Below are positions 19,824 through 44,747 of a DNA stretch of 64,000 bases, in pieces. Below the pieces are notes generated by a model. The model worked only from the letters and a program-made list of their open reading frames with translations, was not told the origin of the DNA and did not search any database. Position 1 is the stretch's first letter. The number at the start of each line of letters is the position of its first letter. Source of the DNA: Chiloscyllium plagiosum (taxonomy: Eukaryota); assembly GCF_004010195.1 (NCBI RefSeq), contig NC_057719.1, forward strand, positions 48,930,723 through 48,994,722, given 5' to 3'. A program made the translations under genes and the position numbers.

Positions 19824-20198
19824 TTAGATTAGATTAGATTATTTACATTGTGGAAACAGGCCCTTCGGCCCAACAAGTCCACACTGATCCGCCGAAGCAC
19901 ACCCACCCAGACCCATTCCCATACATTTACCCCTACACTAACACTACAGGCAATTTGCATGGCCAATTCACCTAACCTGCACATTTTTGGACTGTGGGAG
20001 AAACCGGAGTACCCGGAGGAAACCCACGCAGACAAGGGGAGAATGTGCAAACTCCACACAGTCAGTCGTCTGAGGCAGGAATTGAACCCGGGTCTCTGGC
20101 TTGTGAGGCAACAGTGCTAACCACTGTGCCACCGTGCCGCCCACTGTGCCACCGTGCCACCCACCCACCGTGCCGCCCACCCACCGTGCCGCCCACGG
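19824..20198 (-). mobile_element. Young HE1-like tRNA SINE with reiterated 5' end
   Basis: Minus strand ggcacagtggttagc (A box), gggttcaattcc (B box), (aatct)n tail. Confidence 0.92.
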
Positions 20199-20319
20199 TG
20201 TCAAGTCTGTCAAGTTAGTTACTCCCCTGCTACACCATTTAATTCTGAGATATGGATACTCCAAAAATGGCAGGTAATGTTTCCAGCCCCACTCCAGCCA
20301 GGTAGGGTATTCGCAAAAG

Positions 20320-40800: not shown

Positions 40801-41190
40801 CGCAGTTAGAAGTGAGACTGAGACGTTGAGATTGTGCATTAAGTTATCTTTCAAAAAGAATAAAATCGGCATATATGGTGTCTTGTGGTGGATGAGATAT
40901 TCAGGCGCTCATAGGAACCACGCCAATGTTTGCAGTTGTGTTTGCAACAGATTCTGCATTTCCATCCAATTACATTGTTCGCATTCAGACACTTGATATG
41001 TGCTGTCACAATCATGTAATTCAAGAATAAATTTAAGTCTCTGCAAAACGTGTTAGCAAATATAGTACGCAGGTTCATACTAAATCCGCTTTAATCAGCC
41101 ACCAAATTAGGAGAGTAACAGCATAATGGGTGGGACCAGGATGGATGAGCTGGGCAGCTAATATTAACCAGTTCAGCAGCAAAAGTGATA

Positions 41191-42771
41191 TTTATTATAA
41201 AGAAATGATCGAAATTTCACAAGACCTTTTATCTATCATAAAATAAGCACTGTACATAACCGAATATTTATATGAATTAGTTGGACAATAAATATCTGAA
41301 ATGGACAAAAGTTCACGTGTAAAAAGCACAATTTATGAATCAATTTATATCTTACCTACATTTACATTGAAAACACTTACAATACCTAATAAAAAGGAAA
41401 ATAGGTGGTAGAGACTGGAATCCAGATCAAGCCCCGTCATTTTTACACTAAGAAGAAATACAAAAGTATCCTGTACATAAAAAAATCGATAAAATTTCAG
41501 AACTTTCAAGGAAAATAGACAAGTAAAGCGCCTAGCGTTTGTTTAGCTTCAGAAGTTGCAGGTTGGAGTATGTATATATTATATGATATATGTATACACA
41601 CACTCTAAGTCAGGCATCGTTTGTGCATCAGTTGCTACAAGAATTTGTCTTCTTCTCATTTTAAAACTTATAAACATAACAGCTTATATCTGTGCCTCTA
41701 AAATGAAAAAACAAAAGGAAAATAGACGTGGTACAGTGCAAATTTTCGCCACTCTAACAGATTGGCTGCAAGCTATAAAAGCACATTCTCACCCTCATGT
41801 CTTATGATGGGAGTGGAGGGGTGGGGGCTGGGGTTTGGTGGGCAGAAGGGAGGGAATGGAATTCCTGAACTGACATTATTTGGTAAACTAATGGACCCTA
41901 ATGGCAGACTCGAAGTCATGCAGTTTTGAACACACCCACTAAGTGCCATCGAGCCTCAGGATTTCCACTTTATTGAATATTGTTTCAGATTTAGCCGTGG
42001 AAGACAAATCTAAATTGTGCTAGAATGACTTTAAAATAGTCGTCCGTATCTGTGGACTCCAGTATGGTTGATGTTTATGCATATATATTACTTTATTAAC
42101 ACCTGCAAACAAAAGAACCAACTTCTGAGCACCTGACCCTCAGTGGGGTCAATACAACCGGCCATCTTTGAAGCTATTGGGTTCATAAGGACAAATAGTT
42201 TGAGCGCCCGTGTGAAAGATGCAGCTAGAGTCACGAAGTTTCACAGTTCAGCTTATGTTTGAAGGCGCTCATTTCAAACAATGGTGGGTACCTATTCCAA
42301 CAGAATTTAGCTCAATTTTAAACAACAGCAGAACCATGCCCACCCCTCCCCCACCGCTCGAGTTCAACAGCGACAAAGGGTTCACACACTTGCATACAGT
42401 ATAGCAGATCATACTTGCTTTGAGTCTAGCACAAATAAAAACACAGATGTACCACTGATATAAGACACACATTGATTGTCTCTCAGAACTACATATGGAA
42501 CCCTTATAAACATTTTCTTTTTAAATAAAGTAGTGCATCTGTGACACCAATCGCACAATTCACACAGCCCTGATGGTCCTTTTGTTTTGTTTTTAAAGGC
42601 CAACTTTAAAATGGCTACATTTGGAATGATTACAAATATCGTCCTGTCCATTCCAAAGGTTTAACCGGATGGTTGGCTACAAGAACTGGAATGACGGTAA
42701 GTCATGTGCTCTCCATTCCAAAGGTTTAACATTGGAATGATTTGTCCAATTTCAAAGAGAGTCCCAACACT
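41191..42771 (-). other. otx2: otx2 3' UTR (extent uncertain) with candidate AATAAA signals
   Basis: TTTATT on the + strand at 42092-42097, 41969-41974 and 41191-41196; AU-rich distal part. Confidence 0.5.

Positions 42772-44747
<1,976 letters not shown>

Follow-up and report, generated by a model that had tools for sequence, protein, structure and literature searches.

Organization of the otx2 locus

The 64,000-nt stretch of DNA analyzed here, referred to as the window, holds the otx2 gene of Chiloscyllium plagiosum on the minus strand, as established by translation of its last exon. Over this exon the protein is 100% identical to OTX2 of Chiloscyllium punctatum, 94–97% identical to seven other cartilaginous-fish OTX2 proteins, and 88% identical to a mammalian one. 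No relatives of the exon-3 protein were found in metagenome, prokaryote-genome or viral contigs. A duplicated module lies 30–160 nt past the otx2 stop codon in the same exon, upstream of AATAAA signals at three mRNA-strand positions (41191, 41969, and 42092, minus strand); the module therefore is part of the 3′ UTR by position. This UTR is ~1.6 kb long, and the positions of the AATAAA signals suggest alternative otx2 3′ ends. Two features frame the module:

42772–43398, minus strand: otx2 last coding exon, identified by translation and ending in the stop codon TGA at 42772–42774
42403–42579, minus strand: adjacent UTR block outside the module, far better conserved than the module

A separate coding repeat with a 54-nt period (42788–42828 and 42842–42882), which specifies the duplicated DCLDYKDQ Otx tail, is located directly upstream of the UTR duplication.

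A degraded tandem duplication with alternating CATTCCA motifs

The module is a degraded tandem duplication with a period of 62–65. A direct repeat pairs 42622–42665 with 42687–42730 (77% identical over 44 nt, spacing 65), and copies of TGGCTACA, in plus-strand letters, start at 42612 and 42674 (spacing 62). These spacings bear out the original prediction of a tandem duplication of ~63 nt; the second copy is real, but it starts at 42674 and not, as had been stated, at 42675. On the mRNA strand TCATTCCA is present three times, with CATTCCA heptamers at 42733–42739, 42687–42693, and 42622–42628, and TTTGGAATGGA is present twice (42712–42722 and 42647–42657). With S denoting CATTCCA and A its reverse complement, the order on the mRNA strand is S1, A1, S2, A2, and S3, which confirms the predicted alternation of three CATTCCA sites with two reverse complements. 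The elements are listed below in this order with their predicted pairing and their state in organisms C and D, two of the relatives described in the following section:

42733–42739, minus strand: S1 CATTCCA site, predicted to pair with A1; no change listed for either C or D
42712–42730, minus strand: copy 1 of the 19-mer, GTTAAACC plus A1 (42714–42720), the first part of which forms the loop of predicted hairpin 1
42687–42693, minus strand: S2, the middle CATTCCA site, with no partner in the dominant predicted fold and half paired in a small hairpin
42674–42681, minus strand: copy 1 of TGGCTACA (plus-strand letters), inside the unchanged run 42671–42686
42647–42665, minus strand: copy 2 of the 19-mer, GTTAAACC plus A2 (42649–42655), inside the unchanged run 42641–42666
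42622–42628, minus strand: S3 CATTCCA site, predicted to pair with A2
42612–42619, minus strand: copy 2 of TGGCTACA (plus-strand letters), not conserved, changed at 42612 and 42618 (D) and at 42619 (C)

Sites A1 and A2 each lie within an identical 19-mer. The repeat unit consists of this 19-mer, a diverged 17-nt spacer, and an identical 8-mer that holds S; the 10 mismatches between the copies cluster in the spacer, leaving the 19-nt identical run (P = 0.009). Across the 64-kb window, the 19-mer (42647 and 42712) is the sole exact, non-low-complexity direct repeat of at least 19 nt whose copies lie no more than 200 nt apart. Neither a repeat of this kind nor three CATTCCA copies within 130 nt arose in any of 40 order-3 Markov simulations. 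When all non-low-complexity 7-mers of the window were considered, five copies in 130 nt were found only for this 7-mer and for a repeat cluster near 20130, which comprises short CACCGTG-containing repeats (20121–20200). The repeat and its motif cluster are beyond chance.

An origin of the module from a transposon was rejected: self-BLAST returned only the module's own copies below E 0.01. Elsewhere in the window some copies of TCATTCCA lie in a dispersed repeat whose flanks are unrelated to the module. The copies at ~5768, 11396, 12945, and 60080 share a stretch containing TCATTCCA with similar flanks and probably represent a transposon. Intron 1 of otx2 contains a short inverted pair (GGAATGA...TCATTC, 44414–44441) that includes a match to CATTCCA. 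Inspection by eye also revealed that the last codons of otx2 (W-K-F-Q-V-L-stop, 42772–42793) contain adjacent TGGAA and TTCCA sequences, and that S2 with its 3′ flank (42678–42692) reads F-Q-F-L-stop. As judged by eye from these likenesses, the UTR repeat unit might perhaps have descended from a copy of the otx2 gene end.

Conservation of the module in related genomes

The relatives used were the four most distant of 24 candidate runs, of which three, organisms C, D, and E, covered the module; the fourth gave no alignment, which does not prove absence. Likeness was 90–95% for C and D and under 90% for E. The counts given here take in C and D only, E having been left out as its substitutions are mostly unlisted, with 36 substitution rows and 17 indel rows of the comparison lacking. 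In the main pieces 28 letters differ in C and 34 in D; for D the listing takes in 28 of 32 substitutions, all 24 in C were counted by kind, and the few that are unlocated could shift the counts slightly.

Across C and D, 18 of the 129 module positions (14%) are substituted, which is close to the rates at third codon positions (5/49) and in the linker (6/36). None of the 18 changed positions falls within the 19-mers (38 positions, P = 0.001) or within the two 9-bp stem cores described below (36 positions, P = 0.002). As eight changes common to C and D probably arose on the C. plagiosum lineage, and as the 19-mers were defined by identity in the C. plagiosum genome, the changes were recounted with the 10 that are independent of that lineage. 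None of these lies in the 19-mers, in the stem cores, or in the two sets combined, which span 56 of 129 positions (P = 0.026, 0.033, and 0.0025, respectively). Stem positions are conserved beyond background in the two relatives counted, with 0 of the 10 off-lineage changes in the 36 core positions. The GTTAAACC sequence alone is not significantly conserved (P = 0.08 with all changes and 0.25 in the recount), and copy 1 of the 19-mer is contained in a run without listed change in C and D (42705–42748).

Site S2 is destroyed in organism C by two substitutions and one insertion, and has no listed change in D. Organism E is missing about 9 and 3 letters in two middle bins; if contiguous, these missing letters possibly remove S2. 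No change affects the four heptamers with a predicted pairing partner, and the heptamer destroyed in C is the sole unpartnered one.

The module aligns in all three runs that contain otx2, while in D and E the nearby UTR at ~42250–42345 has given way to sequence that cannot be aligned. The duplication had been described as ancient; the comparison supports this only in that the duplication predates the split from C, D, and E. A search for orthologous UTRs gave no match to plasmids. Stop-codon readthrough into the 36-codon open frame that follows the otx2 stop was rejected, a 1-nt insertion being present there in organism C.

The adjacent block is ~ten times better conserved than the module, with substitutions in C and D at 2 of 173 positions (42403–42575) compared to 18 of 129. 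A 15-nt inverted repeat (42442–42456 and 42529–42543) closes this block, whose folding (z +0.53) is no better than that of shuffled sequences. A 22-nt pattern of the downstream block had no match in metagenomes.

Predicted folding of the module

Both stems that the original prediction named, 42620–42628/42649–42657 and 42714–42721/42732–42739, are real complements. They had been proposed to be mutually exclusive, but the S1:A1 and S3:A2 stems have no bases in common and both are contained in the minimum-energy fold. The following hairpins were predicted:

42713–42740, minus strand: predicted hairpin 1 (S1:A1), 8–9 bp with a 10-nt loop, pair probabilities 0.89–0.98
42691–42705, minus strand: small middle hairpin of 5 bp, private to the C. 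plagiosum lineage
42617–42660, minus strand: predicted hairpin 2 (A2:S3), a 9-bp core (42649–42657/42620–42628) with weaker extending pairs

Pair probabilities were calculated in 24 folds, comprising eight sequence contexts at three temperatures. In all 24, predicted values were 0.69–0.99 for S1:A1 and 0.40–1.0 for S3:A2. Values for the alternative registers did not exceed 0.022 for S2:A1 and 0.20 for S2:A2, the highest (S2:A2 at 0.14–0.20) occurring in unrestricted folds of 375–800 nt at 37°C. When S1 or S3 was held open, pairing of S2 with an antisite still was no higher than 0.23. Forcing an alternative register cost 4.4–5.5 kcal/mol in one local window and 2.1–3.2 kcal/mol in another, such that the alternatives lie 2–5.5 kcal/mol above the dominant fold in local folds of the actual sequence. 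Two coexisting fixed hairpins, S1:A1 and A2:S3, are predicted to dominate, and would keep two of the three weak miR-1/206 matches closed. Masking of seed sites, as had been proposed, is upheld by these predictions to the extent that two of three sites are buried, but the alternative pairings on which exposure would depend have the higher energies given above.

A different balance emerged when pairs at 42695–42704 were forbidden, which is a crude proxy for relatives without the small middle hairpin. At 37°C the probabilities then were 0.25 for S1:A1, 0.40 for S2:A1, and 0.28 for S2:A2, and at 25°C they were 0.52, 0.15, and 0.24, respectively. Examination by hand showed that four of the five pairs of the middle hairpin involve positions that differ in C and/or D.

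The module as a whole folds with a z of −2.79 (1/200 shuffles), and a sliding window over it has the lowest z (−2.88) among 37 along the UTR. The value drops to −1.41 in a 175-nt window with 40 more bases. The opposite strand of the module yields −2.0, and the module z is inflated because the inverted motifs themselves raise the score. Taken alone, hairpin 1 has a z of −1.3 and hairpin 2 of −2.8. Rfam returned four weak rows (E 0.9–4.5) in 41000–43000, none over the module.

Covariation had been suggested as a check on the structure. By hand, seven of 47 non-core paired positions are changed in C and D, all breaking the pair except for one wobble in C, and none of the seven changed pairs is compensated. 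Similarly, 0/9 pairs are changed on both sides between the two repeat copies. In hairpin 2 the core is unchanged and three flanking pairs are disrupted in one or the other of C and D. Outside the cores, paired positions show no better conservation than unpaired positions (7/47 vs. 11/46 changed, P = 0.30). The stem cores never vary and so cannot distinguish structure from motif.

Candidate roles of the module

The interpretation that we favor, tentatively, is that the module is a conserved, static twin hairpin with a 19-base motif that may act as a protein-bound element restraining otx2 translation. Selection would act both on the two stems and on GTTAAACC. GTTAAACC is retained in copy 1, where it lies in a loop, as well as in copy 2, where it lies in a flank; this points to a sequence-reading RNA-binding protein, for which GTTAAACC would be the binding site. 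The predicted-paired heptamers and the bases around the antisites would be held by selection and the unpartnered site released, the middle site S2 being a spare from the duplication that is free to decay. The restraint on translation is suggested by reports on whole otx2 3′ UTRs rather than on the module stretch.

The same motifs can be read at the level of DNA as an enhancer with five TEAD (MCAT) sites in alternating orientation, the hairpins then being a by-product of inverted motifs; two of the MCAT sites would be fused to the site of a second factor, GTTAAACC, in the last exon. We consider this unlikely, although it explains why the motif occurs in both orientations, why the 19-mer is fixed, why covariation is lacking, and how the loss of a site is tolerated, and five sites in 118 nt constitute the only such cluster in the 64-kb window. 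The original prediction identified CATTCCA as the TEAD motif; each of the five heptamers fits the MCAT element, given as CATTCCA/T (PMC9117765). Against an enhancer, the literature search gave no pointer to TEAD elements within the Otx2 3′ UTR, and there is no expectation that the lost site should be the unpartnered one, which would be a 1-in-5 coincidence. TEAD prefers a purine before the CATTCCA core, but the five sites here are preceded by T, T, T, C, and C. A neutral leftover, in which a duplication decays slowly in a slowly evolving genome and its arms were perfected by template switching or conversion, appears improbable to us. The match of the substitution density to third codon positions and linker, the few relatives of which two are fully readable, the letters missing from organism E, and the presence of another tandem duplication, the Otx tail, in the same exon all are compatible with neutrality. 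It is at odds with the avoidance of the 19-mers and stems by the changes (P = 0.0025) and with alignment of the module in every run with otx2 when part of the nearby UTR is unalignable in D and E.

Two further readings involve miR-1/206. The module may be an ordinary cluster of target sites, in which weak seed matches multiplied by duplication confer mild repression and there is no switch; there are three CATTCCA matches in 120 nt, and targeting of mammalian OTX2 by miR-206 has been reported (PMC3900797, PMC3688919, PMC5596602, PMC4045889). The original prediction of miR-1/206 sites holds for these three seed matches, but all are of the weak type without ACATTCC, and an ACATTCC-type match is absent throughout the ~1.6-kb UTR. 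The effective miR-1 motif is given as ACATTCc/RCATTCc in PMC2872879 (Table 3). Opening any of the CATTCCA sites is predicted to cost 5.1–5.9 kcal/mol at 37°C, the conserved sites are predicted to be paired, organism C has lost the very site that no antisite locks, and the two antisite 19-mers are left unexplained. In addition, miR-1/206 is absent among the 42 candidates of a Xenopus screen, the screen having used stringent cut-offs and a sensor fragment perhaps without the homologous region. A simple target cluster has, in our estimation, a low probability. A miR-221/222-type match in the distal copy (42614–42620, minus strand), which we take to be of this type by its seed, was rejected as it is broken in organisms C and D.

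The second microRNA reading is the structural switch originally envisaged, in which registers S1:A1 and S2:A1 or S2:A2 would alternately expose and mask miR-1/206 sites via a trans factor. The description of the antisites as miR-1-mimicking segments is circular, as any reverse complement of a seed match resembles the seed. The alternative registers are sterically possible, they become near-isoenergetic once the lineage-specific middle hairpin is forbidden, and S2:A2 attains its modest probability in the long unrestricted folds at 37°C. However, one fold dominates the actual sequence at the energies noted above, the two named stems are compatible, S2 gains little pairing when S1 or S3 is held open, no compensated change is seen in the stems, and the pivot S2 has been destroyed in C and may be deleted in E. 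A switch in C. plagiosum is unlikely, and we regard this account of the module as very doubtful. With the middle hairpin forbidden the registers are near equal, and the ancestral sequence may for that reason have paired in alternative ways: a twin hairpin shared across jawed vertebrates would have sampled three near-equal registers, a GTTAAACC-reading protein would have picked the open miR-1/206 site, and some shark lineages would since have been locked by a new hairpin over S2 or by S2 loss. We view this scenario as a long shot. Overall, the module likely is a modest control element of the otx2 mRNA rather than a microRNA-hiding switch.

Relation to known systems and implications

The Otx2 3′ UTR controls translation in mouse (PMC2204009), and in frog the Xotx2 3′ UTR represses otx2 translation and acts as a timer (PMC1540709); related Xotx2 work names miR-129/155/214/222 (PMC3760135). 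The frog system and the shark module both involve the otx2 3′ UTR. The Xenopus work used the whole UTR, and no duplicated hairpin is described in its available portions; the shark miR-221/222-type match moreover is broken in C and D. More generally, the Otx2 UTR literature, in the parts available, names miRNAs and describes no RNA structure. A conserved translational control element of ~140 bp reportedly was described in the mouse Otx2 3′ UTR by Boyl et al. in 2001, in Development 128:2989. This element resembles the module in being conserved non-coding sequence in the 3′ UTR of the same gene with a proposed effect on translation. It is 42403–42579, not the module, that has the length and conservation expected of the mouse element, and for this reason the adjacent block, rather than the module, is the likelier home of that element.

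Targeting of mammalian OTX2 by miR-206 (Wang et al., 2012) and the shark module have in common 3′ UTR seed matches for the miR-1/206 family, but the module differs in that its three matches are of the weak type without the preferred purine and two are predicted to be buried. The literature search found no test of miR-206/otx2 targeting in a shark. In mammalian OTX2 the downstream block presumably is retained, together with a single strong miR-1/206 site and degenerate remnants of both repeat units. In the p27 3′ UTR a hairpin switch triggered by Pumilio exposes miR-221/222 sites. The shark module is similar in that a hairpin masks a seed match, here by prediction; its pivot site, however, is not conserved. 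Homotypic clusters of TEAD MCAT elements (PMC9117765) likewise are resembled by the five exact CATTCCA motifs in both orientations, but those of the shark are exonic with a pyrimidine before every core. No description of the otx2 UTR duplication was found in the search results and passages covered.

The module is a genuine duplicated element with a conserved core, located in a UTR that already is known as regulatory. Head and eye development depend critically on the dose of Otx2, and a small duplicated and conserved module is a compact target for mutagenesis, although the adjacent block at 42403–42579 probably is a more rewarding target. If the module is static, it would be one more conserved UTR element. 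If instead its ancestral form switches, the module and its relatives would offer a rare chance to follow, as an evolutionary series, the locking of a UTR switch.
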